Both the position numbers and the translations under genes were made by a program. From a virus: DNA of 31,955 nucleotides. Of the stretch, positions 1 to 28,425 are shown in pieces (positions within the stretch are counted from its first letter, which is position 1; each line of letters begins with the position of its first letter). The DNA is taken from UHGV virus genome UHGV-0175171, one strand, 5' to 3'. A model generated the notes under the pieces. That model worked only from the letters and a program-made list of their open reading frames with translations. It did not search any database and was not told the origin of the DNA.

Positions 1-1
1 G

Positions 2-1738
2 GCGGAAAACTTAAATCTGTATGTGAAAAGGATACGTTTACTTGAAACAATGGATGATCCAGAAGCTGTAATTCTGTGTGATCAGGGGGTATCAGCTTTT
101 AAGGGTCTGAATATATCTGAAGGTGAGCTTGGGCGATGGATGGAACAAGTACAGGCTGGTATGTGGGACGGTTCACATTTAGTACTGGAATCGATCGATA
201 GGTTCAGCCGCCAAAACCCCTTTACCCTTGTAGGTTATCTTTCACGTTTGGTTGAACATGATATCACGCTACATGATGTGTCCCTAAACCTGCTGATTAA
301 CCGTTCTAACAGTGCGATGTTACCAATCGTTACTATGTCAGCACAGCGTGCATATGAGGAATCGAAAATCAAAAGTGATCGTATACGCGATGGGTGGAGA
401 CGGAAGAGGGAACAGGCATTCAATAACGGTACAATCGTTACTAACAAGCGTCCACAGTGGATTGATATTCGTGATGATCAATATGTATTGAATGATAAAG
501 TGCATATAGTAAAAGAAGTATTTCGCCTCGCACAGTCCGGTATTGGTACACCTACTATTGCCAAGATACTAAATGCAAAGGGTGATGACTGGCTTTTCGA
601 AAGTGGGCGGCAGTGGCGGGGTGAATCAGTACATAAGCTTTTAAAGAATAAGCGTGTGACTGGTTCAATTTTTATTAGTGAAATTATTCGTGATTATAAT
701 AGTACTTCAAATCCAGTAGACCAGAAACGATATGAAATGGACGTGTACCCAATAGTCATATCAAAGGAAGAGTTTAATTTAGTACAGCAATTACTACGCT
801 CACGACGTGCCAACACTGGACGAATTAGTACGAATAAAGATACTGATGAATTGAAGAAGTCAAATATCTTTAATAGTATCTGTAGGTGTGGGAAATGTGG
901 TGAGGCAATGTATCATAATGTTGTTAAGTCTCACCGCAACTCAAAAAAGAATGGTAAGTTCACTGAAGAGTATAGATACATTCGGTGTCTTGGGGAACGT
1001 GATAATCTATGTGACAATAAAGCACTACGTTATGAGGTAGTAGAGCAGTTTGTTCTTGAATACCTAAAAGGTATGGATTTTTCCCGTATATTAAAACCCA
1101 ATAACCACAAAAGTGAGATTGATGTACTGAGACTCAATATCGATGAAGAGAAGAAGCATATCAGGGAATACCGTCAGGGGATTGAAAAATTAAAATCAAT
1201 GGGGAAGAAGGTTCCCTTTGATGTGCTGGTAGAGCTTGAGGAATCGCAGAAGCGACTAAGTGACCTTGAAGAAAAAGAAAGTAAGTATACAGATTTAACT
1301 GTTGATACTGAGTACTTAAAATCTGTTGATCCTTCTGTACTATTTGATCAGGGTAACATTGAAGTACGTTCCAGGATTGAAAAGGAATTATCAATGCTAC
1401 TGGAGAGTATCGTACTACATAGACTTGATAAGCACTATATAATCACCCTTGAATATACACAGGTCAACATACTTAAACATGTACTTTTTATTGAGGCTGG
1501 AAAGATTCCAGTACTAATGTCTACTCTTAGTATTGAGAAGTACAATGATGAACATATCTATACTATGCCTTCTTTTTCTATAAGGTGCGGAGAGGGAGTG
1601 CCAGAAATTCATGGTGAGGCTATAAGCCTGGTAGATTACTCCCTTCTATTAAACTACATAGATGGTGTTGATGGTTCAGAGTATGTTTCGGAGTGGATGC
1701 GAACAAATCAAAATTTTATCTTTAGTAAAGAAACTTGA
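2..1738 (+). CDS. large serine recombinase (phage integrase type), 5'-partial: reading frame is open to the window edge
   Basis: ORF 23..1738 has no stop upstream in frame (frame opens at nt 2). Resolvase-type motif ESIDRFSRQ, a recombinase domain, a Cys-rich zinc ribbon (CRCGKCGEAMYH...IRCLGERDNLCDN) and a C-terminal coiled-coil region, the layout of large serine recombinases. The catalytic-Ser N-terminus is expected upstream of the window. Confidence 0.85.
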   Translation, partial: AENLNLYVKRIRLLETMDDPEAVILCDQGVSAFKGLNISEGELGRWMEQVQAGMWDGSHLVLESIDRFSRQNPFTLVGYLSRLVEHDITLHDVSLNLLINRSNSAMLPIVTMSAQRAYEESKIKSDRIRDGWRRKREQAFNNGTIVTNKRPQWIDIRDDQYVLNDKVHIVKEVFRLAQSGIGTPTIAKILNAKGDDWLFESGRQWRGESVHKLLKNKRVTGSIFISEIIRDYNSTSNPVDQKRYEMDVYPIVISKEEFNLVQQLLRSRRANTGRISTNKDTDELKKSNIFNSICRCGKCGEAMYHNVVKSHRNSKKNGKFTEEYRYIRCLGERDNLCDNKALRYEVVEQFVLEYLKGMDFSRILKPNNHKSEIDVLRLNIDEEKKHIREYRQGIEKLKSMGKKVPFDVLVELEESQKRLSDLEEKESKYTDLTVDTEYLKSVDPSVLFDQGNIEVRSRIEKELSMLLESIVLHRLDKHYIITLEYTQVNILKHVLFIEAGKIPVLMSTLSIEKYNDEHIYTMPSFSIRCGEGVPEIHGEAISLVDYSLLLNYIDGVDGSEYVSEWMRTNQNFIFSKET

Positions 1739-2940: not shown

Positions 2941-2952
2941 AAACAAAATCAT

Positions 2953-2975: not shown

Positions 2976-2997
2976 TCACGTATAAGGATATACAATA

Positions 2998-3501: not shown

Positions 3502-3508
3502 TAAAAAA

Positions 3509-3533: not shown

Positions 3534-3567
3534 AATTAACAAAATACATTTTACAAGGATATTTATC

Positions 3568-4044: not shown

Positions 4045-4159
4045 ATGGTTCGCATAATACCCGTTTAGTTCGCATAATAGGGCATAATGCGACTTTTGCG
4101 ATCCTCTGTAACCCTTGGTATGACTGGGTTTGTCAATTATGCGAACCATTATGCGACCT
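4031..4159. repeat. cluster of at least five copies of a ~10-bp motif TTCGCATAAT / ATTATGCGAA in both orientations (iteron- or operator-like)
   Basis: Copies at ~4031-4041 (degenerate), 4048-4059, 4067-4078, 4136-4148 and 4148-4159, plus the related GCATAATGCGAC at 4082-4093; followed by a very AT-rich segment (4160-4225). Confidence 0.6.
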
Positions 4160-4695
4160 TATTATAATTATATTTTTCTATTTGATATTTTAAGTATATG
4201 TAATCGCCATATTATCATATGAAGTGATAATGCTCGTAAACTCGCATCATCACTTAAAATAAAAATAAGGGATAAACTTGCGTTTTTTGCAGTCCCTTAC
4301 GGAACTACAAAAGCACGCCCGGTTTCCTGACTCGCTGTAGCTCAGACAACAAAAGTGATTTGGGTAGTACAGTACTGACTTAAAGTGTTTGGGGTCGGAC
4401 TGACGTCCTAAAGTATTAGTGAGTTCTACGCGTCGCATAGCTCCTTGTCTGGGTCGTTCGCTGTTAAAGCTCACTAAGGTACTCAGGGACTTCAGTACTG
4501 ACATACTATCAATTAAGTACTCCCATGTACTCAAACCCAATGTAATTAATACAGTGTGACGCCGCGAAGACGGAGGAACACGCCACCCGCCGAAAGGCAT
4601 ACTATGAGGAAATGAAAGTGAGTAGGGGAACAGTGTAAACCAATCAGACAAGGAAATAAACTGACCTTTTGCACCTAGATATTACTAATAGAACT

Positions 4696-4731
4696 TTATT
4701 CAAAACACCAGATGCAATTAAAAATCTGGTG
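4696..4731 (-). terminator. intrinsic terminator of the minus-strand cassette
   Basis: Stem caccagat/atctggtg (8 bp, 10-nt loop) followed on the minus strand by TTTTG, immediately downstream of the stop of gene 4747..5343. Confidence 0.55.
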
Positions 4732-4746
4732 CTTGAGGTCTCATGC

Positions 4747-5343
4747 TTATTTGGGAAAGGTAAAAATTTCTTCAATATTCATCTTTAATGATTTTGAGTC
4801 GAGGATTATTTTATCTTTGAGGTCATTGAGACTGGAAATCATCAACTCAGGTCTATCATCAGAGACTACTGATCTAAAAACAATAATACCAAAGGCTTCA
4901 TTATAGTATTCCGTTAATCTGTAAAATGACTCTTTTAATTCTTTTGGATATGTTATTTTCCAACGTGCACATGATGATAGTTTTGATGATAATTCAAACG
5001 TTTCATATATCTGTTTAGATATTTGTGAGGACAAATTCTCAAATTTTGATTCTGACGAACGAACAGTAATGATATCAAAATGCAATTCTTGTATCTTTAA
5101 TACCTGTTGGTCATATTCAGCCATAACAGCGGTTACATGATTAAACCCTGCTTCATTGTTCTTTGTCTGTAGCCAATGAGGGGCTGCTTTGAATGCTTTA
5201 TAAGCAACCCAAGCAGTAAAGGCCGTACTGGATGCACTAATCCAATCCGTGAAACTCCCCCATTCAACATCATTGAAAATATATTTTATCAAAGAGGCAC
5301 CTAAAAGTAGAAAAAGTATTATTTTTAGGGTTGATTTATTCAT
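4747..5343 (-). CDS. membrane protein with two N-terminal TM helices and a helical cytoplasmic domain; paralog of 5355..6065
   Basis: ORF; N-terminus MNKSTLKIILFLLLGASLIKYIFNDVEWGSFTDWISASSTAFTAWVAYKAF shares the inter-helix motif (F/V)EWGSFTDWISASS with the adjacent gene. Confidence 0.6.
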   Translation of the reverse strand: MNKSTLKIILFLLLGASLIKYIFNDVEWGSFTDWISASSTAFTAWVAYKAFKAAPHWLQTKNNEAGFNHVTAVMAEYDQQVLKIQELHFDIITVRSSESKFENLSSQISKQIYETFELSSKLSSCARWKITYPKELKESFYRLTEYYNEAFGIIVFRSVVSDDRPELMISSLNDLKDKIILDSKSLKMNIEEIFTFPK

Positions 5344-5354
5344 TGTCTAATGCC

Positions 5355-6065
5355 TTAAAAATAAATGAAAAGTGTATTTAATGCACGATTATTTGAAAAA
5401 ATGTAGGTTTTGGCTTCTGATAGATGCGTTGATAATCTAATTGTATTAGGGATTAAGCTATCAAAAGTGTTATACATCTTGCGTCTTACGTGGTCAAACT
5501 CAGACATTTTTAAACCCCGCAATAAAGCTATTATATTACTAATGTGTCGAATTAATAATTCGACGGTATTTGTGACCGCAGTACATATTTTTTCAAATTC
5601 AGATGTAGGCTTGTAACGAAATAACTTCATTACATTAATGTCATTTTCTAACTGCTGAGATGTAACTTCCAACTCAGTAATGGCATCAAGTAAATATGCT
5701 TGCATTGACTCTAAAACAGAGTCTTTAAGATGGTGATCATATCCATTAACTCTATGCCTATAGTTTTTTAGTTTGAATTCAATTTTCTCAATAGTAATGA
5801 ATAGTTTTGGGTAATGCTGTGTAATAATTTGTTTTTGCAGCAAGTAAGCATCATCTCTATATTTGTCTTTTTGCCAACGAGAGTAGACATAGAATGCAAA
5901 AATCAAAGTGATAATACTGGAACTTGCACTGATCCAATCGGTGAAACTACCCCATTCAAATCCCTTACTACCAGAAAATAGAATCTTAACGAGAACTAAG
6001 ATAGCTACAAATAAAAGTAGCGAGACTAGGCCAATAAGGGTAGTGTTTGCAATTTTAATATTCAT
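5355..6065 (-). CDS. membrane protein with two N-terminal TM helices and a helical cytoplasmic domain; paralog of 4747..5343
   Basis: ORF; motif GFEWGSFTDWISASSSIITLIFAFYVY. Its start overlaps the stop of the upstream gene (ATGA at 6062-6065), suggesting translational coupling. Confidence 0.6.
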   Translation of the reverse strand: MNIKIANTTLIGLVSLLLFVAILVLVKILFSGSKGFEWGSFTDWISASSSIITLIFAFYVYSRWQKDKYRDDAYLLQKQIITQHYPKLFITIEKIEFKLKNYRHRVNGYDHHLKDSVLESMQAYLLDAITELEVTSQQLENDINVMKLFRYKPTSEFEKICTAVTNTVELLIRHISNIIALLRGLKMSEFDHVRRKMYNTFDSLIPNTIRLSTHLSEAKTYIFSNNRALNTLFIYF

Positions 6066-6613
6066 AATTTATCAGCTATGTTAATTTCACTATAGAGTAA
6101 GTCTTTCAATTTAATCAAAGCTTCCCAAATTTCAGTTGGCTTATTGCTGCAATTTCTTAGTAATATTTCATCATTTTCATATTTACTCAATGATGGATCA
6201 TAAAACCGTGTTCCTAATTCTTGAAAATCATTGATAGCATTAGTAACCGTCCAAATCGCATCATGCATTTGTGGTGTCATGTATAATGTATAATCAAGAA
6301 GGAAGTCACTTGCTTTACTTTTAATTAAATCCTGTTTATAAAGCATAATTTGATCTAAAAGATCACCATCATCATAAAAATTAAAATTTGCTGGAAGATT
6401 CAGGGAATTAATGAACTGAATGAAAGGTTTAATAATTTGCTTTTTTTCTTTCAATTCATCTTCGAGTACTTTGAATAATAGTTGCTTTTTAATCTTTTCG
6501 TTTTCAGATTTTTTAGTGATGAGTTGACTTGCCAATGTTACACCCGCAGCTATTAAAGCACCGCCTAAAGTACCGCCGACTGCAATGAGTTGTGTAATGG
6601 TTTCAGCTTCCAT
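6062..6613 (-). CDS. membrane-anchored protein (one N-terminal TM helix, helical soluble domain), unknown function
   Basis: ORF; N-terminal ITQLIAVGGTLGGALIAAGVTLASQLI hydrophobic segment followed by a KE-rich helical region. Confidence 0.55.
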   Translation of the reverse strand: MEAETITQLIAVGGTLGGALIAAGVTLASQLITKKSENEKIKKQLLFKVLEDELKEKKQIIKPFIQFINSLNLPANFNFYDDGDLLDQIMLYKQDLIKSKASDFLLDYTLYMTPQMHDAIWTVTNAINDFQELGTRFYDPSLSKYENDEILLRNCSNKPTEIWEALIKLKDLLYSEINIADKL

Positions 6614-6680
6614 GATTTTAGAAATCCAATATATAAACGTGAAAAAAGAATTTTACCATAATAACCAATTTGACGTAAAC

Positions 6681-6757
6681 TATCAGCGATATCCCCCTCC
6701 CATAAAGGGTAGGTGGTTTGTTTAGTTTGTTGGTGTGTGAGGGGGATATCGCTGATA
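6681..6757. repeat. perfect 19-bp inverted repeat (TATCAGCGATATCCCCCTC ... GAGGGGGATATCGCTGATA) with a 39-nt G/T-rich spacer
   Basis: Read directly: arms at 6681-6699 and 6739-6757. A second hairpin (gtgctgc/gcagcac, 6761-6780) follows immediately. Confidence 0.7.
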
Positions 6758-6820
6758 GAAGTGCTGCCAGTTAGCAGCACTGAGTAATGTATGGTGGGTC
6801 TGCGTTAGTACACTTAACGT

Positions 6821-6846
6821 TTGGTTATGGTTATGGTTATGGTTGA
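6821..6846. repeat. hexamer tandem repeat (GGTTAT)x3 + GGTTGA
   Basis: ttggttatggttatggttatggttga read directly, ~20 nt downstream (in coordinates below) of the stop of gene 6864..7778 on the minus strand. Confidence 0.7.
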
Positions 6847-6863
6847 GATTGACTCAATATATT

Positions 6864-7778
6864 TCAGCAGTTTCTTACGATTCTATCGTATCGTTCTACA
6901 AAAGTTATTATTTTCAACTGATCTTGATTATATGTATCAACCCATTTCTTCATAGCATCTTCTATTATGTAGAGAAAATCAACAAGGTTAAAGTAGGTCG
7001 TATCCCCAATAGTGGTTGTCTTAAATGAATTTCTTTGATGTATTGCAAAACTAATTCGTCTCACCTTCTCTTGTTTTACTTTCTGACTATCAAGATTAGA
7101 CATATGTATTAATGAATTGCGGAGTTCCCAAAGCTCATCAGAAGTAACTTCCAAAGAAGATAAATCTGCATAGGTGTTAAGCCATTTTGTAAAGTTATGG
7201 TGCTGACCAAAATCAACCCAGGCAATTGTATCAATGAATGAAAAAAGTAACTTTATGCAGCTTAAGTAATGTTTATTATTAAATAGATAGTGAATTGGTT
7301 CAAAATGATCATCCTTAAGAAGTTGAGCCATGTCAAAAGTATTACCGACATAGTATTTTGAAAGATAATCATTATGATTTGAAAATTCGTATCCTGAGAA
7401 TTTATCAATATGATGTTGACGAAGTGGTTCAAAATCTAAACGATGTTGGTTCATTATTTTACCGTTCTGGATTGGGGTAATCAAATGTAAGCAGTCATCA
7501 CCAAGATTATAAGGTGCTAAAACATCAGAGAAAATTAAAGTCAAATTGTCTGTACGCATCATTGCATTAATTTTTGCTAATGAAACTCCATTTTCTTTAT
7601 CTTTGATTTCTTGTGGAATATCACCAAAATTTGCATCTGAAAGGTCAAGGCCAACTTTAGATAAGAGGAAATGACACATTTCCTCTTCTGTTCCTGAATG
7701 CTCATACAGTACAAAAGCAACATGTGTTATTAAATCATCAGTTGCGAAGTAATATAAGTTAAGAAGTTTATGTTTCAT
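6864..7778 (-). CDS. hypothetical protein with an R-N-x3-H (HEPN-like) motif; candidate abortive-infection or RNase-type effector
   Basis: Start moved to the ATG at 7778 (GGAGGA RBS, 5-nt spacer); the track start at 7790 is a GTG. Motif ELRNSLIHM at residues ~220-225 fits the HEPN R-[N]-x3-H signature. No other domain recognised. Confidence 0.5.
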   Translation of the reverse strand: MKHKLLNLYYFATDDLITHVAFVLYEHSGTEEEMCHFLLSKVGLDLSDANFGDIPQEIKDKENGVSLAKINAMMRTDNLTLIFSDVLAPYNLGDDCLHLITPIQNGKIMNQHRLDFEPLRQHHIDKFSGYEFSNHNDYLSKYYVGNTFDMAQLLKDDHFEPIHYLFNNKHYLSCIKLLFSFIDTIAWVDFGQHHNFTKWLNTYADLSSLEVTSDELWELRNSLIHMSNLDSQKVKQEKVRRISFAIHQRNSFKTTTIGDTTYFNLVDFLYIIEDAMKKWVDTYNQDQLKIITFVERYDRIVRNC

Positions 7779-7790
7779 AAGTTCCTCCAC

Positions 7791-14781
<6,991 letters not shown>

Positions 14782-14782
<1 letters not shown>

Positions 14783-15219
14783 TGCGAACTTCAGACTACA
14801 CAATACGGAAATTTTTGATTAATAATCTCAATACTTTGGTAAATCTTCAATATCCATCGAAAGCAACGGTAGACGACAAACCAATGTTATACATCGGTGA
14901 CAGTACTGTAACACGTTCACGCATTCAAAAAGCAAATACATTAATTAATGGTCAATTAATACCAAGTGAGATTAATTATCTCTGTGAATTTAGAGTGGAC
15001 TTTGTAGCAGTAGGTGAAAATTATAAACTTGCATCTGATGAAATTAGTAAAGTACTTGATGCAATCTATGCAAGTGGTTTTATTAATGAATTGAACAAAC
15101 TACTTCCAATGGATGTTTTCAATGTTGTTCTGGAAGAGAGCTTAATGACTACCCAGGCCGAAGCAACTAATACGATGTATGTGCATACACAAACTATATC
15201 TTTTAGCTATGGGGAATAA
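14782..15219 (+). CDS. tail terminator protein (gpU-like, putative)
   Basis: 145-aa ORF with a TAATG overlap with the upstream gene; C-terminus ...TISFSYGE resembles the lambda gpU end ...VITYEM; position before the tail tube genes. Confidence 0.45.
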
Positions 15220-15222
15220 TTT

Positions 15223-16905
15223 ATGGCTTTTATTACTAACAACACAAGTGTATGGATTAACACCGACACATTAAACAGTGATCCCAAATCTAAGGGATTT
15301 AAAGAAGTACCAGAATTAAGCGGATTCCCTTCATTCGGTCACAGTACTGAAACCCTTGCCATTGAAACATATGACTCTGAATACATCGAAAAGGTAGTAG
15401 GTAATAGCACCTATGGCGATGTCACTATTACGGTTAACTGGGTTCCATCAAAACATAAGTTTCTCGATGACATCGTAAAAAGTCGCCAATTAGTACAAAT
15501 GAAGGTAGAGATCCCCGATGAAGGACAGAATGACCTTACGGTTAACTATGCACTTTATAATGGTTATCTGGCTTCTGTATCTACCAGTGGTGATTATGAT
15601 TCTGTTACTTCCCGTTCCTATGTATTCACCCCAAACGAACAACTTTCTGCGGGTATTCTTGACAGTACGATAGTCCCTCTAAATCGCGGAGACTGGGGCG
15701 TAGGTGCAAACGGTATTGAGTTTCCAAGTTATCAGGGGCGTGATGGTAACGCTTTTATTAAGATCCCAGGTGCAGGTTCACCAACAGGGACAGATGTACT
15801 TGGTATTAATAACCTTGATTCTAACTTTGGTACACAACTGGTTATCAGTAAGACAGGTACGCCAATAATTAACGTGCGTAACTATGGTGCATCTATGGGG
15901 GCATGGTACAAGGTCTATACCAGTGCTGATAAACCTACACTGGCAGAACTGGGTGCTGCATCAAGTGCATCTCTTGCAGACTACGTACCGATTACCCGTA
16001 CCATCAATAGCAAACCACTAACTGGTAATATTACACTACTGGCTTCTGATATCGCTGATGTATACAGTAAGACGTATATAGATCAGAACGTAGTCCCAAA
16101 AGTATTCCAGTTAAACGGTCATGCACTATCCGGTACGGCATTAAACTTAGTTGCCGCAGATATTCTTGATGTGTATTCACAGACTCAGGTTGATACGTCA
16201 TTTGTAAAAAAAACAACTACTGTTAACGGTTTAAGCCTTTCCCAGAATATAACACTGACAGCCGCACAACTCCCAGACATGGCGAGTATTGTTTTTACTA
16301 ATAACACATATGTACCAAAAACATACTTAATCAACAATAAGCCATTAACAGGAACTAACATTCAATTAGTTGCTGCTGATATTCCTGATGTGTACTCACG
16401 TACTCAGTCAAATGATCTATTTGCACTACGTATCACCACTATTAACGGGTATGCTCTTAACAGCAATATAGTACTGAATTTTGATGATGTAGGAACATAT
16501 TCAAAGAAACAGATCGATGACAAAGACAAGGTACTAAAGGAAGAGATTGATACGAAGGTAACAATTGTAGATGATATTCTTAAACTAAATACCCTTGTAA
16601 ATAATTCATTAGAAATAGATTTGAGTGATAGTAAAACTACATTCACAGTGACTCTATCACAACCAACGTCAAACTTCTCTGTACTAAATGCAAGTGGTAA
16701 TGACAAAAAGAGTCAAACATTTCAGGTGCTTATTAAACAGGGTACAGGGGCAAATAAAATATCCTGGCCTACAAACATTTTATGGTCTTATGGGCGTGTT
16801 CCAGTATTAACCTTTACAAAAGATTCTACTGATGTATTTCAGTTTGTCACAGTAGACGGGGGTAGTACTTGGTACGGCTCTCTACTAATGGCAGATATGA
16901 AATAA
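15223..16905 (+). CDS. tail tube protein paralog with a long C-terminal extension carrying ~5 phage-tail-fibre-type repeats
   Basis: N-terminal ~150 aa are clearly homologous to the protein at 19814..20290 (shared VNW.P, Q.KV, NGY..S...GD.DSV..R..V.T pattern). C-terminal repeats such as NSKPLTGNITLLASDIADVYSKT, NGHALSGTALNLVAADILDVYSQT and NNKPLTGTNIQLVAADIPDVYSRT. Confidence 0.6.
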   Translation: MAFITNNTSVWINTDTLNSDPKSKGFKEVPELSGFPSFGHSTETLAIETYDSEYIEKVVGNSTYGDVTITVNWVPSKHKFLDDIVKSRQLVQMKVEIPDEGQNDLTVNYALYNGYLASVSTSGDYDSVTSRSYVFTPNEQLSAGILDSTIVPLNRGDWGVGANGIEFPSYQGRDGNAFIKIPGAGSPTGTDVLGINNLDSNFGTQLVISKTGTPIINVRNYGASMGAWYKVYTSADKPTLAELGAASSASLADYVPITRTINSKPLTGNITLLASDIADVYSKTYIDQNVVPKVFQLNGHALSGTALNLVAADILDVYSQTQVDTSFVKKTTTVNGLSLSQNITLTAAQLPDMASIVFTNNTYVPKTYLINNKPLTGTNIQLVAADIPDVYSRTQSNDLFALRITTINGYALNSNIVLNFDDVGTYSKKQIDDKDKVLKEEIDTKVTIVDDILKLNTLVNNSLEIDLSDSKTTFTVTLSQPTSNFSVLNASGNDKKSQTFQVLIKQGTGANKISWPTNILWSYGRVPVLTFTKDSTDVFQFVTVDGGSTWYGSLLMADMK

Positions 16906-19763
16906 TGAAACCACACAATATAGATAATGCATATCAAATGATCGAAGGTCAGTTTAAGTTCTTGGCACGTAATACTGGCCTTACAACAAATAATAAGACA
17001 CAGCACTACGTATTAAACCCGGATAATGTACTTGCAAATAACCGTCACTTTATTGCAGAAACTGGATGGGAAGCACAGCCGGAAGGTGACGCAACTACAG
17101 AAGGTCAAAGCCTCCAGATTCTGGGGGCAATATATGTGTATCAGGCAACTAAAGACCCTTTCTATCTACAGAAGGCAAAAGAGTACTTTAATGCATATCA
17201 CAAGGCGTTCTATCGTGGTGCAGCATTTCCAGATCCACCGAGTTCATCACTACGCTGTAACTGGATTTGTAATGGAAAGGCTCCAGTACTGGCACACTAC
17301 CCATTAGATCCCGAATATCCGACGCATGGTGGATTTAAAGGGACACTATTCACATGGGCTAATGGCCTTACAAAGATCCCACATGGTGCTCCACACTGGG
17401 GTGAATACCTCGATGCAGTATGGTTTGCCTTCCCTAAGCGTGCGGGACTTGGTTGGAATCAGGTTAACGCAACCGCTTATATGTGGCTTACCAATGAAGA
17501 CTCAATAGACTGGGACACAAAAGCACCAACCTATGACGTCGAATGGATCATTGATCGTACCGGACGTAAGGTAGACTCAAACGGCACAGTACTGCAATCC
17601 GGTCTTACAGGTCAGGAAGGTACAGTACAGTTAAAGAATAAAACCATTACTGGTGAATATCGTTTTAACTATGCAACCCGAAACCCTGTAGAACATGGCG
17701 GGTATATGTTCAAGCGTAATGAACGCTGGCATAACCGACCTGTACACGTACCGATTGATAACTATGGTTCTTTGGACTTCTCTGATAATGCATCAGATGC
17801 CGAATTATGGTTTTGTCAGGCAGCCAAGTTACTTTGGGATATTACAGGAGAACGCCAGTATTATCTTGCGTGGCAATGTGCACTATTAACCTGTTATGGT
17901 TATTCAGATATTGACAAGTACGATATGTTCTTTCGTAAATCTACTATTGCCGTAACACCTTTTACTGATGGTATTTCATACGACTACTTCTACCCAAGTG
18001 AGCAAGTAGCATCATATTCCCGTGATGCACAGGGTTATATTGTAATAAATCAAAGTGCATCCGCACAGACGATGTTAGAACAACAATCAATCTGGTTTAA
18101 ATTCAATAATAACTCAAAATTTCACATTGAATATGGTGGTGTTGATAATACCAGTACTGCAATGTCAGTATCTGCTGAAGTCACAGTGAATAAAACAAAG
18201 ACAGAAGAGGGTGCAATTGATTATCGGTGTGGCTTACCAATGACTAATCCAGATGGATCTATTACTACAATGGACATTCCTATGAATCGTTTCACACGTG
18301 TGATGAAACCAGATGGCTCTAATTATATGACTGCCGATCTACGTATGATTGCCGATTATGGAGATAACACGGTAACAAACTTTGAATATCAGAGTGGAGT
18401 ACTTGGGAAGTATTACGATAACGTCGTGTCTACAACAATGGATGGTGACGGGGGACAGGTGGTGGGGTTTTGGATATTCACACCAGAGACTGCCAATATT
18501 CAGTCTTTTACCTATCGTTCATATGATGATGATTTTAACTTTCGTATAAGTGATGATAATAAATGGCGTTGGTGGGCTATGCTCCCTGCAACAAATGGTG
18601 AATGGGTTACAAAGACTTTTACTATTGCTGACTTCAAACTAAACGGTTATCAACCAGATCACCCCGAAATTGAAGATCCAGATAACCCAGGAGAATGGAT
18701 TCAACCAGATCCAATTCCAGCAAGCCCAGTACTAACGAACCGTGAATCTTTCACACTGCTACTTGATACAGATCCAGTAAATGGTGTGAATGGAAAGATT
18801 GACTGGTATTGTATTAATGATTTGCCTGCGATGTATACAGATGCTGGGACAGGTGATTATTCGGTCACAGTACTGCTTACGTTTAACGACACAACTGGTA
18901 ATGGATACACAGCACGATTAGGTGACTGTACTATTAAAGATTATATGTTAGATAGTCTTGCGTATACTCCCGGTTTAATTCCGTTCTCTAACATTACCGA
19001 TCCCTATGCCCAGTTATATTCTGGCTGGCGTGGTCTACCGTATCCTGGTTATCAACTACCGGCGATCTGGTGCTTTAAAGGAACAGAAATAGATCATACT
19101 CGCTTAAATAACAGTATCAATTTTCTATATGATTCTCAGGCATGGTTTAAAAATAAATTTAAACCATCTTTACCAGGACCATGTGCACAGGCTTTCGTAT
19201 GGAACAGACAGGACGCTTTAGCATATGCTCCTGATGGTAAACCAGATCAATTCATAATGCAGCACTGGTACGCCGAAGCATGGAGTGGATACGAACCAAG
19301 GGCTTTCTTTGGTGGGTGTGATGCAGTACATGAATTATGGTCACGACAAGACAGTACTGTAATACCTCCTAAACTAATATCTTTCTGTCAGAACTGGATG
19401 AACTATCTAAAATGGTTCATGAAAAATAATGTCGGTAAAGCTCCTACCTATTTTAGGGATAATGGTTCTGTAGAATATGATGGCTTTACCCCTCATATGT
19501 CAGGTCTATGGTTAGCAGGGGCATGCATGATGGCTATCGCCGGATATCCAGACCATGAGCTAATTCAATTACTATTTGATGAAATACAACTTAACTATGC
19601 AGTTATTTCACCAAATCATGTAATGAATGGTACATGGCCTGCGTCAATCAGAACAGGTAATGAAACAACTGCCGAAAACAATAGTATGTTCTTTAGTTTC
19701 TATTCGGGTGAACTTTTACGCGGATTGGGGCTATATGTGCAGTACTACAATCTTCATAAATAA
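16905..19763 (+). CDS. large Trp/Tyr-rich protein of unknown function (951 aa), located between the two tail-tube paralogs
   Basis: Long ORF; ATG at 16905 in a TAATG overlap (the track start at 16869 is a TTG). Sequence is aromatic-rich, like carbohydrate-active or binding proteins, but no motif I can name with confidence. Confidence 0.5.
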   Translation: MKPHNIDNAYQMIEGQFKFLARNTGLTTNNKTQHYVLNPDNVLANNRHFIAETGWEAQPEGDATTEGQSLQILGAIYVYQATKDPFYLQKAKEYFNAYHKAFYRGAAFPDPPSSSLRCNWICNGKAPVLAHYPLDPEYPTHGGFKGTLFTWANGLTKIPHGAPHWGEYLDAVWFAFPKRAGLGWNQVNATAYMWLTNEDSIDWDTKAPTYDVEWIIDRTGRKVDSNGTVLQSGLTGQEGTVQLKNKTITGEYRFNYATRNPVEHGGYMFKRNERWHNRPVHVPIDNYGSLDFSDNASDAELWFCQAAKLLWDITGERQYYLAWQCALLTCYGYSDIDKYDMFFRKSTIAVTPFTDGISYDYFYPSEQVASYSRDAQGYIVINQSASAQTMLEQQSIWFKFNNNSKFHIEYGGVDNTSTAMSVSAEVTVNKTKTEEGAIDYRCGLPMTNPDGSITTMDIPMNRFTRVMKPDGSNYMTADLRMIADYGDNTVTNFEYQSGVLGKYYDNVVSTTMDGDGGQVVGFWIFTPETANIQSFTYRSYDDDFNFRISDDNKWRWWAMLPATNGEWVTKTFTIADFKLNGYQPDHPEIEDPDNPGEWIQPDPIPASPVLTNRESFTLLLDTDPVNGVNGKIDWYCINDLPAMYTDAGTGDYSVTVLLTFNDTTGNGYTARLGDCTIKDYMLDSLAYTPGLIPFSNITDPYAQLYSGWRGLPYPGYQLPAIWCFKGTEIDHTRLNNSINFLYDSQAWFKNKFKPSLPGPCAQAFVWNRQDALAYAPDGKPDQFIMQHWYAEAWSGYEPRAFFGGCDAVHELWSRQDSTVIPPKLISFCQNWMNYLKWFMKNNVGKAPTYFRDNGSVEYDGFTPHMSGLWLAGACMMAIAGYPDHELIQLLFDEIQLNYAVISPNHVMNGTWPASIRTGNETTAENNSMFFSFYSGELLRGLGLYVQYYNLHK

Positions 19764-19773
19764 AAAAGGAAAC

Positions 19774-19792
19774 GGGTAACAGGACGTTACCC
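19774..19792 (+). other. short hairpin (gggtaac / gttaccc) between the 951-aa gene and the tail tube gene; possible attenuator
   Basis: 7-bp stem with a 5-nt loop, followed by A/T-rich sequence without a clean T-run. Confidence 0.3.
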
Positions 19793-19813
19793 TAATTAAA
19801 TAAGGAAATTAAA

Positions 19814-20290
19814 ATGGCTTTTAATCGAATTTTCGCAGCGAATAACGTTGTAGTAGAAATTGCAGAAGCACCAGCAGGTGGTGGTCAGGCAACCACTTAT
19901 ACAGTAATTGAAGAAGTTGCAGCTTTCCCATCAGCAGCAGGTGCCGAGAGTACAATCATTTCAGTAAATACATTTGGTAAGCAGTACGCACAGAAGCTAT
20001 TAGGTTCTCGTTCTGTACCCGATCTAACCCTATCTGTGAACTGGAAACCAGGGGCAGTAGGACAGGAGATGTTAGTTACCGCAGCTCAAAAACAGACGCT
20101 TATGCAGGTAAAAGTAACCTATTACGAAAACATCGCTGATACCGATGGTGCGGGTTATTACTCTGTAGTTAATGGCTATATCAGTTCTGATGTTGTCGGT
20201 GGGGATTTTGATTCTGTCGCGACACGTGAATTCGTCATGACAATTACGGGACAACCTGTAGCAGTTGGTGAAATCGCAGCAAAACCATAA
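19814..20290 (+). CDS. major tail tube protein (lambda gpV N-domain-like)
   Basis: 158-aa ORF immediately upstream of the G/G-T chaperone pair and the tape measure gene; paralogous to the N-terminus of 15223..16905. Confidence 0.65.
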   Translation: MAFNRIFAANNVVVEIAEAPAGGGQATTYTVIEEVAAFPSAAGAESTIISVNTFGKQYAQKLLGSRSVPDLTLSVNWKPGAVGQEMLVTAAQKQTLMQVKVTYYENIADTDGAGYYSVVNGYISSDVVGGDFDSVATREFVMTITGQPVAVGEIAAKP

Positions 20291-20322: not shown

Positions 20323-20613
20323 ATGGATCTATCTAATCTAATGACAGCAATTGGTGTCAAAAAACATGCCTTTGAACTTGCTCCGGGGTTTACTGTTTAT
20401 ATTCGTCTTCCAGCTATTTCTAAGTATAGTGAATGTAGTGACCCGTACACTACAATTCATTACTGTGTAGTTGATGTCGATGGCAAACAACTTTTTAAAT
20501 CACCAGAACAGGTAGAAAGCGAAATTGACATGGTTTATCAAATCAAACTTAATACCGAAATCACGCGTATTTTTACCGAAGCTATGAATATTGAAGAAAT
20601 TGAAAAAAAGTAA
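20323..20613 (+). CDS. tail assembly chaperone (gpG-like)
   Basis: 96-aa acidic ORF between the tail tube and tape measure genes, ending ...gaa aaa aag taa with the A_AAA_AAG heptamer at 20604-20610. Confidence 0.6.
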   Translation: MDLSNLMTAIGVKKHAFELAPGFTVYIRLPAISKYSECSDPYTTIHYCVVDVDGKQLFKSPEQVESEIDMVYQIKLNTEITRIFTEAMNIEEIEKK

Positions 20614-20966
20614 GAGGCGATCCGTTTCTTAAACTTTCTCTAAAAATGCTGATGACAAAAGGGTGTGGTGTGGAAGATCTCTGCACCATGCCCTTTTCGC
20701 TTTTTATCTATCTATTTGTATATGACACTTTTGTAGAACCAAATTCTTCCCGAATTGAACAGGTAAGACATACCGAAATACTCCAGGCTATATGGCTCAG
20801 TACTGGGAATATTAAGAAGGAAGACTTAAAGAAATTCAGTATCACAGAATTGGACTCTCTTAATATCATCAACAATAAGACCATTAAAGAACAAGCCGAA
20901 GAGAGAGAGAAACGGATCGCCGAAGAACAGAGAGCAAACATGTTAAACTGGATGGGAAGAAAATAA
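20323..20966 (+). CDS. tail assembly chaperone G-T fusion made by a -1 programmed frameshift (predicted)
   Basis: The -1 frame is open from 20604 through 20966 (track ORF 20646..20966 lies in that frame); slippery heptamer A_AAA_AAG sits at the G stop; the frame ends 1 nt before the tape measure ATG. Confidence 0.55.
20604..20610 (+). promoter_or_regulatory. -1 ribosomal frameshift slippery site A_AAA_AAG
   Basis: Read directly in the zero frame of the gpG-like ORF; same heptamer class as the E. coli dnaX site. Confidence 0.6.
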
Positions 20967-24867: not shown

Positions 24868-27800
24868 ATGGCAGTAGCAGCCGTATTAACAGCAGTAATA
24901 GCAGGTGCATCAGCCGCCGCCGCAGCTTACGCAGCAGTGGGTCTTGCAGCATCTATCGCTATTGGTGTTGGTGTAGCAGCATTATCCTATGTTGCATCCT
25001 CCCAGATGATGCGTGTTGGAGATCAGGGGGTAAACTATCCCAGTACTGGAACGGTTAACTCTCGAAGTACTTCACCCAGTACTGGGATACCGATTGTATA
25101 TGGCGGTACTAATAGAAGCCTGACCGAAGAATCATTTGTTAAGGTAGGTTCCATTGTCGTATGGCAGAACGTCTATAAGGGACAAAGTAACCAACTATGC
25201 ACAGTGCATGCTATTAGTATCGGGGAGATCGGACGTGCTCCAGGTGCACAATCTGGTGCCGTAATTAAACAGGTATACTTTGATAACAGTCCAATCTTAC
25301 TAGATGATGCCGAAATAACCAGTGAGGGTATTGTTTCTACATCCCTTATGCGTGAGAAGTATCGTAACTTCCTCCAGCTCGAAATTCGTTTTGGAAAGCC
25401 GTCTTATGGTGGTTCTATGACACTTGCCCGGCAATATGGCGGATCTCGCTGGACTGATGAAATGCGTGGTGATGGATTAGTACAGGTTTGTTCGGTTATC
25501 CGTAAGACTAATGGTAGTCTGACTGATGGTATTTTAGTGAATCAAAACTATGCACTTTCATTGGAGATGAAAGGACGTCTAATTTATGACCTTACTGATA
25601 ACATTCGTAAACCCTCCAGTAATCCACCGAGTCAGTTATATGACTTTATCACAAATAATGAATTTGGTTTCAACACTGATCCTAATGATATTGATATTGC
25701 ATCATTTCGTAATTGTGCAATGTACTGTAAGAATAATGAACTATATTCAAATGGTGCTATTGCCTATGATAAGTCATATAAAGAAAACCTTGAAAGCATC
25801 TTGTCTACATTCGGTGGTGTAATATATGAATCGAATGGTATTATGTATCTCACCGTAGATACTGCCGATGTCCCACTATATCATTTTGATGAAAAAAACA
25901 TTCTCGGTACTGTGAATATCACAACTGGTTCTAATACGGATTATGCGAACGTATTCGATGTGACCTATACAAACCCAGGCGGTGATTACTCAGAAGATAT
26001 TATTCGTTATCCAAGTGATACGCTTACAAATGAAACAGTGGTACGGGATGGTTTAATCATTAAAAAAGACCTTAATCTAAAATGGATTCAGGACAAAAAA
26101 CAACTTGCTAAAATGGCTAATACCGAACTATTAAAATCTAAGTATGTTCTTAATAGTATAACTTTTAACACATACGTTACCGATCTCACAGTCTACGATG
26201 TTTTTACACTCAGTTTCAAAGAAGCCGGATTTGTTAATAATAAGTTCCGTGTAATACAACGTACTGTACCGATGACCGTAGATAAGACTGGTGTCGTACA
26301 GATTACCGCTATAGCCTATGCGGACGGCATATATCAGGGGAAAGACCATGGACGATTCCCACAGGACGGGATCACAAATCTACCAAACGCGACATACGTA
26401 GAACCTCCATCAAACTTGCAGGTGCAGAAACTTGGTGCAACCGTTAACGGTAATGCCGTGCTTATGACATGGGATTTAAGCCAGGATTCAAGCGTACGGG
26501 GTTATAAGATTAGATATAAACGCAGTGATTCGAATACATGGATCTCGATTGGTAACGTAGGACAGTACACCACAGAGTTTCAGATACTGAATCTAATCCA
26601 CGGTGTTAAATATGATTTTGGTATTGAGGCGTATAACACTCTCGGTTATTCATCTGAGTTAGTTGCAATTTATAATCAAACTCCACAGGTGATTTTTGCC
26701 CTACCAAAGATTACTAATCTTGATATGACTAACGATAATATGGGATTGAACCAGACTTATTCACAAGATTTTATATTCAGATGGGATGAACAAAGTACTT
26801 TGCCAGTAAATGGAAAACGATTCTCTGATTTTTTCAAATATTATGAAATTCGTGTGTATGACCGTTATCGTACATATATTAAGTCGTACTTTACAACGGA
26901 CTTTAACTGGACATATACCTTTGCAATGAATCAATCTGATGGACTTAACAGATATCGTGTAATTGGTATTATTGCCCACGGTCACGGTACTGGAATTTAT
27001 TCAGAAGAAGTACAGATTGAAGTAAGTAACCCACAGCACCCCCAATTACTTGGTGTACGTTTGCGTAATGGCTATGATAATGTGTTCTTAGAATGGGATG
27101 AATCAAACGTACCAGACTATTCTGGTGTAGTGTTCCAGTGTGCTAAGGATGAGGGTTTTAGTTCGGATGTTCACTATTTCAGTTCTTCTAACCGCTTCTC
27201 AGCTTCATTTGGGATAGAGGATGGATCGTGGTTCGGACGTCTTGCAGCATATGATGTAATGGGACAGGATGAATTAGTATGGTCGCCAACTATTGGTTTT
27301 AACCAGAATACTAAAGTTCCGTACTCAAAGCTAAATGATGATGTTGTAGATGAATTACTGAATTCAGATGTTGCCACAGGCATTATTGAGAAACATATTG
27401 TTGATGACCTTGGTTCACGCTGGCAGGTTCAGGTGACGAATAACGGCAACGTGTCAGGTGTATCACTTGCTAATGACGGGAAAAACTCAGCATTTACGGT
27501 AATGGCAGATCGTTTCAGTATTATTTCTACTGACAGTGCTAAACAGACTGATAAGGTATATCCGTTTGTAGTTCAGAATGGTAAGACTTATATCAATAGT
27601 GCGGTCATTGGAGACGCGAGTATAAACACAGGGCAGATAAATGACCTTGCCGTTTCGCGTGCGAAAATTCAGATAGCAGCAATCGACTCAGCTCGCATAG
27701 CCAATGCTTCAATCCTTAATGGACACATAGTTAACGGGGTTATCGACTCAGCAAAAATATCCCAGCAAATTCAATCTACAAACTGGAATGGTAGTACAGG

Positions 27801-28425
27801 CTGGATGATCAATAAGAATGGTAAGGCAAGCTTCCAGGACGTATCAGTACGGGGTAATATTCAGGCAACCAGTGGAACCATGAATAATGTTACTATTAAC
27901 CAGGACTGTACAATTCTTGGTACTCTTAATGCATCACGTATTGTTGGTGATCAGTGCAGACCTCAAAGTACTGGAGTTAATCGACAGGGGAACGTATGGG
28001 CACCTCCTGGGGTAGAATTCCCAGAAAACTATAGACCAGAACCAGGTCGACTATATGTAGGATTGCGTATTAAAGGGGAGGACTTTGCAAGGACTCTGAA
28101 TAGTAATATGAGTTTTTATTTTACATGCTGGAAGTGGAACTATTTTCAAGTGTTTGTTGGTGGGGATGGAATAGCAAACCGTCTATTATGGGGTTATGAT
28201 GCAGGTTCCGGTGGTGAAGATACGCCAGTTTCATATAAAATTGATAATATTCAAATTCCTGCTGTAGGTAGGGGTAAGATGAATTATCTATATGTAATGG
28301 CTTCAGATGGCCGTAGTGGTTCATGTGGACTGGATATAGGCGAACATCAGGGAAACAATAATCTACCAGGTGACAGACTTGATCTCTTCTTATTCCGTAG
28401 TGGTGAGAACCCCGTTAGTAACTAA
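24868..28425 (+). CDS. central tail fibre / host specificity protein (lambda gpJ-like) with an N-terminal gpI-like hydrophobic region and a fibronectin type III domain
   Basis: C-terminal SGTMNNVTINQDCTILGTLNASRIVGDQ matches lambda gpJ SGTLSNVTIAENCTINGTLRAEKIVGDI (recalled). N-terminal Ala/Gly-rich hydrophobic stretch and GIPIVYGG resemble the gpI C-terminus. FN3-like segment around nt 26400-26670 (YKIRYKRSDSNTWISIG...YDFGIEAYN). Confidence 0.85.
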   Translation: MAVAAVLTAVIAGASAAAAAYAAVGLAASIAIGVGVAALSYVASSQMMRVGDQGVNYPSTGTVNSRSTSPSTGIPIVYGGTNRSLTEESFVKVGSIVVWQNVYKGQSNQLCTVHAISIGEIGRAPGAQSGAVIKQVYFDNSPILLDDAEITSEGIVSTSLMREKYRNFLQLEIRFGKPSYGGSMTLARQYGGSRWTDEMRGDGLVQVCSVIRKTNGSLTDGILVNQNYALSLEMKGRLIYDLTDNIRKPSSNPPSQLYDFITNNEFGFNTDPNDIDIASFRNCAMYCKNNELYSNGAIAYDKSYKENLESILSTFGGVIYESNGIMYLTVDTADVPLYHFDEKNILGTVNITTGSNTDYANVFDVTYTNPGGDYSEDIIRYPSDTLTNETVVRDGLIIKKDLNLKWIQDKKQLAKMANTELLKSKYVLNSITFNTYVTDLTVYDVFTLSFKEAGFVNNKFRVIQRTVPMTVDKTGVVQITAIAYADGIYQGKDHGRFPQDGITNLPNATYVEPPSNLQVQKLGATVNGNAVLMTWDLSQDSSVRGYKIRYKRSDSNTWISIGNVGQYTTEFQILNLIHGVKYDFGIEAYNTLGYSSELVAIYNQTPQVIFALPKITNLDMTNDNMGLNQTYSQDFIFRWDEQSTLPVNGKRFSDFFKYYEIRVYDRYRTYIKSYFTTDFNWTYTFAMNQSDGLNRYRVIGIIAHGHGTGIYSEEVQIEVSNPQHPQLLGVRLRNGYDNVFLEWDESNVPDYSGVVFQCAKDEGFSSDVHYFSSSNRFSASFGIEDGSWFGRLAAYDVMGQDELVWSPTIGFNQNTKVPYSKLNDDVVDELLNSDVATGIIEKHIVDDLGSRWQVQVTNNGNVSGVSLANDGKNSAFTVMADRFSIISTDSAKQTDKVYPFVVQNGKTYINSAVIGDASINTGQINDLAVSRAKIQIAAIDSARIANASILNGHIVNGVIDSAKISQQIQSTNWNGSTGWMINKNGKASFQDVSVRGNIQATSGTMNNVTINQDCTILGTLNASRIVGDQCRPQSTGVNRQGNVWAPPGVEFPENYRPEPGRLYVGLRIKGEDFARTLNSNMSFYFTCWKWNYFQVFVGGDGIANRLLWGYDAGSGGEDTPVSYKIDNIQIPAVGRGKMNYLYVMASDGRSGSCGLDIGEHQGNNNLPGDRLDLFLFRSGENPVSN

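Follow-up and report, generated by a model that had tools for sequence, protein, structure and literature searches.

A diverged tail-tube paralogue as the probable root of a two-component side fibre in prophages of Enterobacteriaceae

Sequence comparison confirms that two of three consecutive genes in a 31,955-nucleotide viral genome (UHGV-0175171; the whole stretch is referred to here as the window) are tail-tube paralogues. We consider it probable, at roughly 60%, that the longer paralogue, ORF-A, and the gene product that separates it from the shorter one, ORF-B, together form a two-component side fibre, with ORF-C serving as the ordinary tube subunit. All three genes lie on the plus strand. 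ORF-A occupies 15223..16905 in the ORF list and encodes a 560-residue putative fibre protein that would be anchored by its tube-paralogue domain; ORF-B (16905..19763) encodes a gp141-family protein with a predicted GH8-like (alpha/alpha)6 barrel; and ORF-C (19814..20290) encodes a plain major tail (tube) protein of 158 residues. The ATG of ORF-B at 16905 overlaps the stop codon of ORF-A (TAATG, 16903-16907), so that the middle protein, initially annotated as a Trp/Tyr-rich protein of 951 residues, is 952 residues long, as it is also called in a contig 99% identical to the window (L007). Its aromatic richness stands, with 3.4% Trp, 6.3% Tyr, and 5.3% Phe, the Trp and Tyr contents being in our judgement about twice the typical values. 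ORF-C is followed directly by the genes for the G/T chaperones and the tape measure protein. Between ORF-B and ORF-C, the spacer contains a conserved stem-loop (19774..19792, plus strand; dG −10.4 kcal/mol, z −2.6), and a hairpin with different stem sequences occupies the same place in nine relatives (L004, L011, L012, L014, L015, L017, L018, L025, and DCP80).

In a single BLASTP comparison of full-length ORF-A and ORF-C, residues 3-140 of ORF-A aligned with residues 7-147 of ORF-C at 28% identity and 52% positives (E = 2e-16). Both proteins start with MAF, and phrog_158, “major tail protein,” is matched by residues 3-140 of ORF-A (E = 1.2e-19) and by ORF-C (E = 8.9e-17), which bears out the paralogy that had been proposed from the DNA. 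The Pfam Phage_TTP_11/12 models score below their gathering thresholds in both proteins (15.2 versus 28.4 bits for ORF-A; 20.3 versus 26.1 bits for ORF-C, whose Phage_TTP_12 match at E = 5.5e-4 likewise falls short of Pfam's threshold), and a sequence search of ORF-A, ORF-B, and ORF-C against solved structures gave no meaningful matches. The tube-fold domain comprises residues 1-147 of ORF-A (15223..15663, plus strand), and is predicted to have the β-sandwich and flanking helix of solved tube proteins. As the AF2 monomer model of ORF-A has a mean pLDDT of 41, with the tube domain alone confidently modelled and both the shoulder and the shaft described below at values under 50, a fold is claimed here for the tube domain only. 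The ORF-A- and ORF-C-type tube domains, whose genes lie 2.9 kb apart, fall in separate clades. This separation rules out a recent duplication; the sequences point to an ancient one, and to an arrangement that is a conserved and widespread module.

The remainder of ORF-A resembles a fibre. Adjacent to the tube domain is a conserved “shoulder” (residues 148-245; 15664..15957, plus strand) with the motif RGDWGVG...GTQLV.SKTG...W.KVYTSADKPT.AELGA, which always accompanies the tube domain in the A family; the two are kept together in DCP80, at 27% identity over residues 3-245 of ORF-A. Five tandem tail-fibre repeats of 36-37 residues follow (residues ~253-436; 15979..16530, plus strand), in register at residues 262, 298, 335, 371, and 408, with the motif xxINGKPLxGNITLxAADIxDVYSKT. 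They are of the INGK.L..NITL.A.D type found in tandem in trimeric tail fibres, match the PHROG tail-fibre family phrog_23008 over three stretches (E = 4e-17), and align at 28-40% identity with a Phage_fiber_2-positive protein of contig L026; Pfam reported no Phage_fiber_2 match in ORF-A itself. The five fibre-type repeats assigned to the longer copy in the initial annotation are thus real units. Repeats of this type are present in 76 of the ~115 long family members and also towards the C-terminus of long gp141-like proteins. ORF-A ends in a gp140-like adaptor domain (residues 459-560; 16597..16902, plus strand) that carries the ~95-residue C-terminal motif Q(G/T)(S/T)G(A/G)NK(V/I).WP...W. This domain is 44% identical to a phi92-like gp140 homologue (E = 1e-31), 41% to the C-terminus of rV5 gp43, 33% to a 173-residue protein of a Pseudomonas P2/HP1-like prophage, and 29% to a 107-residue protein of a metagenomic virus, and it matches phrog_7760 (E = 1.3e-27) and phrog_9017 (E = 3.5e-27).

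Full-length homologues of ORF-A (67-75% identity) occur in prophages of Enterobacter, Cronobacter, Klebsiella, E. coli, and Pantoea, where all are named “hypothetical.” Every relative inspected, whether an Enterobacteriaceae prophage or an uncultured viral contig, conserves the A-B-C trio; one intact relative is a prophage beside ybhA/pgl in E. coli ESBLEC_MG48. The 952-residue gene is conserved in all close relatives, which rejects a foreign insertion peculiar to the window, and the unusual local insertion first suspected is instead a widespread module. The first ~235 residues of ORF-A stand at the N-terminus of more than 100 protein clusters, whose proteins are 400-1563 residues long. Clustered at 50% identity, the A-type family amounts to ~115 clusters, almost all of them annotated as “hypothetical” or with a generic “tail fiber”; several, named tail fibres, end in an S74 chaperone, and the gp140-like adaptor end with a separate partner is found in the cluster of the window's ORF-A alone. 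In the phage collection, isolated phages contained no A-type protein except in the probably chimeric DCP80 record, and no DNA near-identical to the window was found among isolated phages; a scan of the genome collection with the ORF-A N-terminal profile returned two Pseudescherichia loci only. A search of the literature for fibre-bearing tube paralogues found none, the “two major tail proteins” it yielded being unrelated proteins or SPP1-type frameshift products. The proposed tube-paralogue-rooted fibre design is widespread in prophages of gut bacteria and previously unstudied.

ORF-B, initially taken to have no known family, belongs to the phi92 gp141/phrog_2871 family (1205.6 bits over residues 2-949). 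It shares 54% identity at 100% coverage with proteins of many phi92-like and related phages and 32% identity with rV5 gp42, and is more conserved than most neighbouring genes. In all five independent genomic contexts examined, a gp140-like domain is encoded immediately upstream of a gp141-like gene, in addition to the TAATG overlap in the window. More than 500 sequenced phages carry the gp140/gp141-type pair, among them those of the phi92 and rV5 groups, which have broad host ranges; phage W70 lacks the gp141 family. At the level of sequence, then, ORF-B and the C-terminal domain of ORF-A make up a portable two-gene unit held in common with myophages. A search for “Rosetta stone” fusions of the gp140 domain to the gp141 module found none among 120 homologues, so gene adjacency is the one line of evidence that argues for contact between ORF-A and ORF-B.

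The gene context and the relatives of ORF-B bear on whether it is part of the virion. The model of ORF-B is a compact, globular, enzyme-like protein rather than a fibre or a β-helix spike, as might be expected of a soluble or lysis-released depolymerase. ORF-B could also be an assembly factor for ORF-A, given that a chaperone gene often comes next after tail-fibre genes; under either role the gp140-like domain of ORF-A would be the receptor tip. However, known fibre chaperones are small, and a 952-residue protein that retains 54% identity between sipho-prophages and myophages is unlikely to be one. Long relatives have the gp141 module at the N-terminus, covalently joined to the fibre repeats that come after it, so there it is part of the fibre. 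In addition, the family always lies within tail or tail-fibre gene blocks and is labelled “tail protein” in PHROGs. These observations make a role outside the virion very unlikely, even though the 2026 cryo-EM paper on phi92 never places or mentions gp141, treats gp140 on its own as a fibre-like candidate, and leaves one fibre unidentified. The proteome passage on rV5 names mainly major components, gp42 not being among them. The two-component side fibre remains the preferred reading, on which ORF-B would be incorporated into virions as part of the tail.

The ORF-B model adopts a glycoside-hydrolase-type (alpha/alpha)6 barrel interrupted by two β-rich insertions of about 155 and 320 residues. 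The smaller spans residues ~121-276 and the larger, delimited from the model's secondary structure, residues ~357-680 (17973..18944, plus strand). Foldseek returned weak similarity to CBM11 (TM 0.55-0.59 on the target) and to tandem CBM22 without giving the matched model residues; we infer that this likeness belongs to the β-rich insertion, and the insertions are possibly carbohydrate-binding-module-like. The barrel and these possible binding modules, both predicted, lend support to the carbohydrate-binding or -degrading appendage envisaged earlier. No match to a known non-structural enzyme emerged: the fold is enzyme-like, and the close homologues with inspected gene context are all in phage tail or tail-fibre loci.

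Two GH8 motifs can be recognized within the barrel. Glu66, in TTEGQS (17100..17102, plus strand), occupies the catalytic-acid position of GH8, equivalent to the catalytic Glu55 in the TSEGQSY of BcsZ. Asp298, in NASDAELW...LW..ERQY (17796..17798, plus strand), falls in the GH8 signature region (SASDGDVW...LW..EQRY in BcsZ), in which the fifth signature residue is Glu in ORF-B versus Asp in GH8. A profile comparison of the ORF-B family with E. coli BcsZ by hhalign aligned the catalytic-acid motif segment alone and was not significant (E = 0.21). No position in ORF-B was assigned to the third GH8 catalytic residue, and invariant acidic residues such as D770 are candidates for the equivalent of the BcsZ Asp243 base. 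As the curated Pfam GH8 model PF01270 has no match in ORF-B, nor does any Pfam family at E up to 0.1, we call the protein GH8-like and not a GH8 member. The missed GH8 model and the catalytic base that is not pinpointed would suit a GH8-like fold acting as a lectin-like binding module without hydrolysis, as would the remodelling of the barrel by two large insertions and an aromatic enrichment that fits binding as well as catalysis. We find this reading rather doubtful. Catalytic residues usually drift after loss of activity, whereas E66 and Q68 of the first motif and N295, A296, D298, E300, and W302 of the second do not vary among 35 homologues at 41-78% identity, and the acid and the signature Asp/Glu positions are still present in the more distant rV5 gp42.

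The location of ORF-A on the tail is best considered against the surrounding genes. GpA-type terminase and lambda-type portal domains were identified among the head genes (precomputed Pfam matches on relatives, with the terminase domains confirmed in the window itself), and the tail tip is gene-transfer-agent-like (Dit, DUF2163, DUF6950, and Phage_Tail_Tip); the gene order described initially as lambda-like is so in outline. The terminase gene of the window, which has a poly-A tract at 9141-9147, is frameshifted as sequenced, and this prophage copy may therefore be defective. ORFs of the left arm were rejected as known defence systems, there being no PADLOC match. Only two small ORFs, of 98 and 145 residues, separate the capsid gene from ORF-A. 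The 145-residue protein has no Pfam, PHROG, or NCBIfam match, its profile gave only noise against PDB sequences, and hhalign comparisons with lambda gpU and gpZ yielded probabilities below 1%.

This layout is what gives weight to a neck-proximal ring, in which ORF-A would be the tail terminator or the last tube ring below it and its fibres would be collar or whisker fibres like the T4 whiskers or the lactococcal neck passage structures. Relative to the tube gene, ORF-A is on the side of the head genes, right behind two small head-tail genes, the place of Z and U in lambda, and the 145-residue protein matches no connector family; moreover, some siphophages, such as JBD30, dispense with a separate terminator (PMC11445458), which fits ORF-A as a neck ring. 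The “neck whiskers protein gp24” of Sf11 was rejected as a pointer to a neck role, since the paper shows gp24 to be a tube protein. On balance we regard the neck ring as unlikely. Still less probable is co-polymerization of ORF-A with ORF-C along the tube, or in many rings, giving a “bottle-brush” tail with enzyme-bearing fibres comparable to SPP1 gp17.1/gp17.1* or to lambda gpV and T5 pb6 with their Ig-like decorations. Decorated and plain subunits have a single tube domain in common in SPP1 and lambda, unlike ORF-A and ORF-C; here the domains are only 22-33% identical and belong to long-separate lineages, as would better suit a specialised site. Should the shaft trimerise before assembly, three copies of ORF-A would arrive together, favouring whole ORF-A rings over random mixing, and with ORF-B coupled to ORF-A a 108-kDa head on each ring would be very bulky. 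Provided that ORF-A is in the virion, we regard a single ring at the tip-proximal end as the likeliest placement, at somewhat less than even odds, followed by a ring under the neck and, slightly less likely still, several rings along the tube.

The two-component side fibre could be assembled and used as follows. The N-terminal domain of ORF-A would enter the tail as one or more tube-like hexameric rings, and the rest of the protein (the shoulder, the five repeats, and a short helical segment) is assumed to exit outward and trimerise into a shaft. With six ORF-A per ring and trimeric shafts, one ring would bear two fibres (6 to 2x3). The last ~100 residues of ORF-A would act as a portable adaptor that docks ORF-B, and translational coupling through the TAATG overlap would make ORF-B probably near-stoichiometric with ORF-A. 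Because the gp141 module stands ahead of the repeats in the long relatives, it may be a node in the proximal part of the fibre and not a head at its distal end. ORF-B, judging by its predicted fold, would bind and probably cleave a conserved surface polysaccharide of Enterobacteriaceae, providing a reversible first contact or a path through the glycan layer, after which the gpJ-like tip fibre (24868..28425) would engage the terminal receptor. The greater conservation of ORF-B relative to most of its neighbours points to a conserved envelope glycan as the target.

A more far-reaching version, which we put forward tentatively, holds that the diverged tube paralogue is a dedicated ring covalently continuous with two trimeric fibres, that the gp140-like domain is a universal plug exchanging a GH8-like glycan-processing head among sipho-, myo-, and other phages, and that gp140 and gp141 constitute “fiber II” of phi92. 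If true, this would be a new solution for attaching receptor-binding proteins to a non-contractile tail, with the six-fold/three-fold mismatch resolved within one polypeptide. The assignment of gp140 and gp141 to the unidentified phi92 fibre becomes testable, and gp141 gains a predicted fold and candidate catalytic residues (E66 and D298). More broadly, a large unannotated family emerges in which a side fibre appears to be rooted in a paralogue of the tube protein. The family occurs in prophages of Enterobacteriaceae of clinical importance (Klebsiella, Enterobacter, Cronobacter, and E. coli), and its combination of an anchor with swappable distal parts would be useful for predicting prophage host range and for engineering receptor-binding modules. 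The gp140-like domain and gp141-like protein travel together across very different tail types, and identifying the target glycan of ORF-B would account for some of their breadth of host range.

Compared with known systems, the closest counterparts of the window's fibre module are phi92 gp140+gp141 (Justusliebigvirus) and rV5 gp43+gp42 (Vequintavirus), a conserved pair in a lateral-tail-fibre and baseplate locus. The order of adaptor domain followed by large protein, with genes abutting or overlapping, is the same. In those phages, however, the adaptor is a small free protein of 157-222 residues in the baseplate locus of a contractile tail, whereas in the window it is the C-terminal domain of a 560-residue fibre rooted in a tube paralogue, in a prophage with a non-contractile tail. 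Lambda gpV, T5 pb6, and SPP1 gp17.1* carry small Ig/FN3-like decorations on the major subunit or its frameshift product; the window instead has a separate, diverged paralogue (28% identity) that carries a ~400-residue fibre and a partner protein. T5 and DT57C have a tube-like ring at the junction of tube and tip, a dodecameric LtfC collar, and two-part LtfA/LtfB fibres held non-covalently, while the ORF-A fibre chain is fused to its tube-like domain and the stretch from the capsid gene to the tape-measure gene holds no evident collar gene. Relative to the GH8 enzymes E. coli BcsZ, C. thermocellum CelA, Listeria PssZ, and C. perfringens CPF_2247, ORF-B shares the (alpha/alpha)6 barrel and, despite the weak hhalign score and the PF01270 miss, the Glu and Asp motifs, but its barrel is broken by the two β-rich insertions. 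Finally, many relatives of ORF-A with the tube and shoulder module, often with repeats, end in S74 in the manner of fibres of the endosialidase or T5 pb1 type; the window's ORF-A has no S74 and ends instead in the gp140-like adaptor, with a separate partner.

Alignment of the two putative tube domains, residues 3–140 of ORF-A (15223..16905, + strand, 560 aa) and residues 7–147 of ORF-C (19814..20290, + strand, 158 aa), spanned C in full at 28% identity, gaps accounting for five positions (E = 2e-16). Both proteins matched the same PHROG, "major tail protein," in agreement with the paralogy proposed in the initial annotation. The five fiber-type repeats that it had ascribed to the longer copy were likewise recovered, in register at residues 262, 298, 335, 371, and 408 of A, and match tail-fiber families. 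In a neighbor-joining tree, fiber-bearing and plain tube domains fall into separate clades with each genome encoding both kinds, indicating that the duplication of the tube gene is old.

Between the two tube genes lies ORF-B (16905..19763, + strand), whose ATG at 16905 overlaps the stop codon of A as TAATG; B is thus 952 aa long, not 951 aa as first annotated, and predicted to be translationally coupled to A; its description as Trp/Tyr-rich stands (W 3.4%, Y 6.3%, and F 5.3%). We modeled B with AF2 from a 35-sequence alignment (41–78% identity to B). The model, which is of high confidence (pLDDT 88.4, pTM 0.83), displays an (α/α)6 barrel formed by paired helices at both chain ends and in the middle, into which two β-rich regions are inserted (approximately residues 121–276 and 357–680). 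TTEGQS of B (E66) matches TSEGQSY of the E. coli GH8 enzyme BcsZ, whose Glu is the catalytic acid, and NASDAELW..LW..ERQY (D298) matches SASDGDVW..LW..EQRY; E66, Q68, N295, A296, D298, E300, and W302 are invariant in the alignment. There was no Pfam GH8 match to B, an hhalign comparison of the B family with BcsZ was not significant, and the GH8 catalytic base was not located in B. We therefore regard B as GH8-like, and probably active, rather than as a full GH8 member. A Foldseek search of the model returned weak matches to CBM11 and to tandem CBM22 jelly rolls, which probably represent the insertions, although the output does not report the matched model residues.

In the long proteins of the phi92 gp141 family, to which B belongs (1,425–1,657 aa; 11 checked: P0209, P0220, P0224, P0225, P0227–P0230, and P0233–P0235; locus L026, 10001–14896), the GH8-like module is N-terminal. 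Repeats of the type found at residues 241–447 of A follow the module in 9 of the 11, suggesting that it can be a proximal node from which the fiber continues, besides a terminal head; six of the long proteins also contain a glycine-rich domain (PF21722).

B scored 1,205 bits against phrog_2871 and shares 54% identity along its entire length with a protein in 530 phage records, mostly of phi92-like and rV5-like phages of Escherichia, Salmonella, and Cronobacter, along with Vibrio, Erwinia, and Aeromonas phages. The annotations include "tail protein," "lateral tail fiber protein," and "potential tail fiber protein with glycosidase activity." The phi92 homologue of B is gp141, and residues 459–560 of A share 44% identity (E = 1e-31) with the C-terminal two-thirds of the 157-aa gp140 homologue encoded just upstream of it. 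In rV5, gp43 ends in this domain, at 41% identity to A, and next comes gp42, which is 32% identical to B; a Pseudomonas P2/HP1-like prophage encodes 173-aa and 943-aa proteins between Tail_P2_I and the fiber gene, and in a metagenomic virus a 107-aa protein precedes one of 1,631 aa. The part preceding the domain is different in each context; that of rV5 gp43 resembles the P22 tailspike N-terminal domain (PMC3606486). We infer that the domain is an adaptor, fixed to a given virion by its N-terminal partner and holding a gp141-like protein, the latter contact being proposed because the genes are adjacent. No single-chain fusion of adaptor and gp141 module was found among 120 homologues. Next to its gp43/gp42 pair, rV5 (14693–20100) also encodes tip proteins of siphophage type (distal tail protein, tail protein, and "central tail fiber J"); hence, the exchange of tail modules between siphophages and myophages in this group seems to go beyond the gp140/gp141 unit.

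The A-B-C arrangement had been taken for an unusual insertion; it is instead conserved and no accident of the window genome. The 98-aa and 145-aa ORFs are followed by A, B, and C and then by the chaperone and tape measure genes in all loci examined: four from chromosomes or metagenomes, a RefSeq E. coli prophage integrated next to ybhA/pgl, and eight of ten contigs of uncultured viruses, the remaining two being cut off within B or the chaperones. Many assemblies of Enterobacter, Cronobacter, Klebsiella, E. coli, Pantoea, and Raoultella encode full-length homologues of A (67–75% identity), all named "hypothetical protein." Across loci L003–L019, identities are 76–78% for B, 67–73% for A, and 57–77% for C; those of the small ORFs are 55–66% in the distant relatives. 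Within the structural block, B shows the highest conservation, with C reaching 77% in one sub-lineage; this is the reverse of what is usual for receptor-binding proteins, which tend to be hypervariable, and suggests that the target of B is conserved.

A search of 1.8 billion representative proteins with the first 245 residues of A returned 142 clusters. Approximately 115 of these are long proteins (350–1,563 aa) whose common part is only about residues 3–235 of A, at or near the N-terminus; A-type fiber repeats are also present in 76, and the adaptor only in the window's own cluster. Sampled names were "pyocin knob domain-containing S74 family peptidase" (Edwardsiella, Pluralibacter), "tail fiber domain-containing protein" (Klebsiella), and "tail fiber protein" (Serratia). 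One Pluralibacter prophage shares the backbone of the window and lacks B; there, a 1,006-aa member ending in S74 is encoded immediately upstream of the 153-aa tube protein. In DCP80, a 698-aa member aligns with A over residues 3–245 only, and between it and the tube gene lies the gene of a 745-aa protein whose N-terminus is of the T4 gp37 type. Thus, the tube-plus-shoulder anchor (the shoulder being residues 148–245 of A) and its place just upstream of the tube gene are constant, while the distal fiber, encoded by one or two genes, is variable. The DCP80 record (GenBank PQ671644, Escherichia phage) is classified as Straboviridae/Gaprivervirus (T4-like), but the head and tail genes in its first ~20 kb (1–20000) are of siphophage type and related to those of the window; the record probably joins two phages in one chimeric assembly.

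The 50-nt spacer between the fiber module and the tube gene contains a stem-loop, GGGTAAC-AGGAC-GTTACCC (19774–19792, dG −10.4, z −2.6), with no T-run on the + strand. All relatives checked, the Pluralibacter prophage among them, have a hairpin with different, compensating stems at the same place, and that of DCP80 looks like a full intrinsic terminator. The window stem-loop may set the fiber-to-tube expression ratio or stabilize the mRNA. Further downstream, a canonical −1 slippery heptamer, A_AAA_AAG, lies at the 3′ end of the 96-aa chaperone gene, in its last codons, followed by a hairpin at 20611–20631 (whole element 20604–20631), and the next ORF (106 aa) lies in the −1 frame, open from 20604. 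The arrangement looks like a programmed frameshift of the lambda G/GT type.

At ~32 kb, the window represents a temperate-phage genome that is nearly complete. It starts with a large serine recombinase (23..1738), and its + strand structural genes encode a small terminase, a GpA-type large terminase, a 179-aa ORF, a lambda-type portal, and a protease-capsid fusion, then the 98-aa and 145-aa ORFs, A, B, C, the chaperone pair, the tape measure protein, Dit, two small tip proteins, and a 1,185-aa gpJ-like tip fiber. The terminase domains were confirmed in the window itself, and the portal type comes from precomputed Pfam matches on relatives. The large terminase gene is split (8706–10620) into ORFs of 150 and 470 aa at a frameshift site near 9141–9147, where the window reads A7 (GAATTAAAAAAATGG) and a contig 99% identical to it, whose gene is intact (599 aa), reads A6 (GAACTAAAAAATGG). 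The extra A reflects either an error in sequencing or a +1 frameshift that inactivates the gene; with the gene frameshifted in this poly-A run, the window copy of the prophage may be defective, though the family is clearly maintained. Placeable relatives reside in Enterobacteriaceae chromosomes. G+C is 38% in the window and 38–40% in the prophage family including related loci, versus 47% in the single host flank measured (E. coli ESBLEC_MG48); phi92-like loci with the gp140/gp141 unit have 37%. A stretch of lower G+C (4250–7790, − strand; 31–33% over about 5–8 kb) contains ORFs that, like two + strand ORFs just upstream (2998–4044), gave no match in Pfam or PADLOC. Relatives carry the gene of an OLD-family ATP-dependent nuclease at the equivalent position, immediately before the small terminase gene. 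This region looks like a variable cargo or defense slot.

We propose that A trimerizes through its shaft, and that two trimers would contribute six tube domains to a ring that forms part of the C tube or sits at one end of it. Three adaptor domains at each fiber end would hold B, which would bind, and perhaps cleave, a conserved surface glycan before the gpJ-like tip completes adsorption. Three other ORFs can fill the lambda-like connector slots: one of 179 aa that matches a connector PHROG, one of 98 aa with weak similarity to gpFII, and one of 145 aa, in the gpU slot, whose product received no family assignment by Pfam, PHROG, NCBIfam, a PDB profile search, or hhalign against gpU/gpZ. A is therefore probably an additional ring rather than the terminator.

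Decorated tube proteins, two-part side fibers, S74 fibers, and the gp140/gp141 pair are known or at least annotated. No description of a separate tube paralogue covalently continued into a trimeric fiber, as predicted for A, was found in the literature, annotations, or isolated phages checked. In phi92, a 2026 cryo-EM study assigned no protein to "fiber II"; gp140, tried alone, gave no good fit, and gp141 is never mentioned. The closest mechanistic analogue of the A-B fiber is found in T5-like phages, where a tube-like ring beside the tip carries a collar holding two-part lateral fibers (PMC10713586), whereas gene order favors a neck-side position for the predicted A ring.
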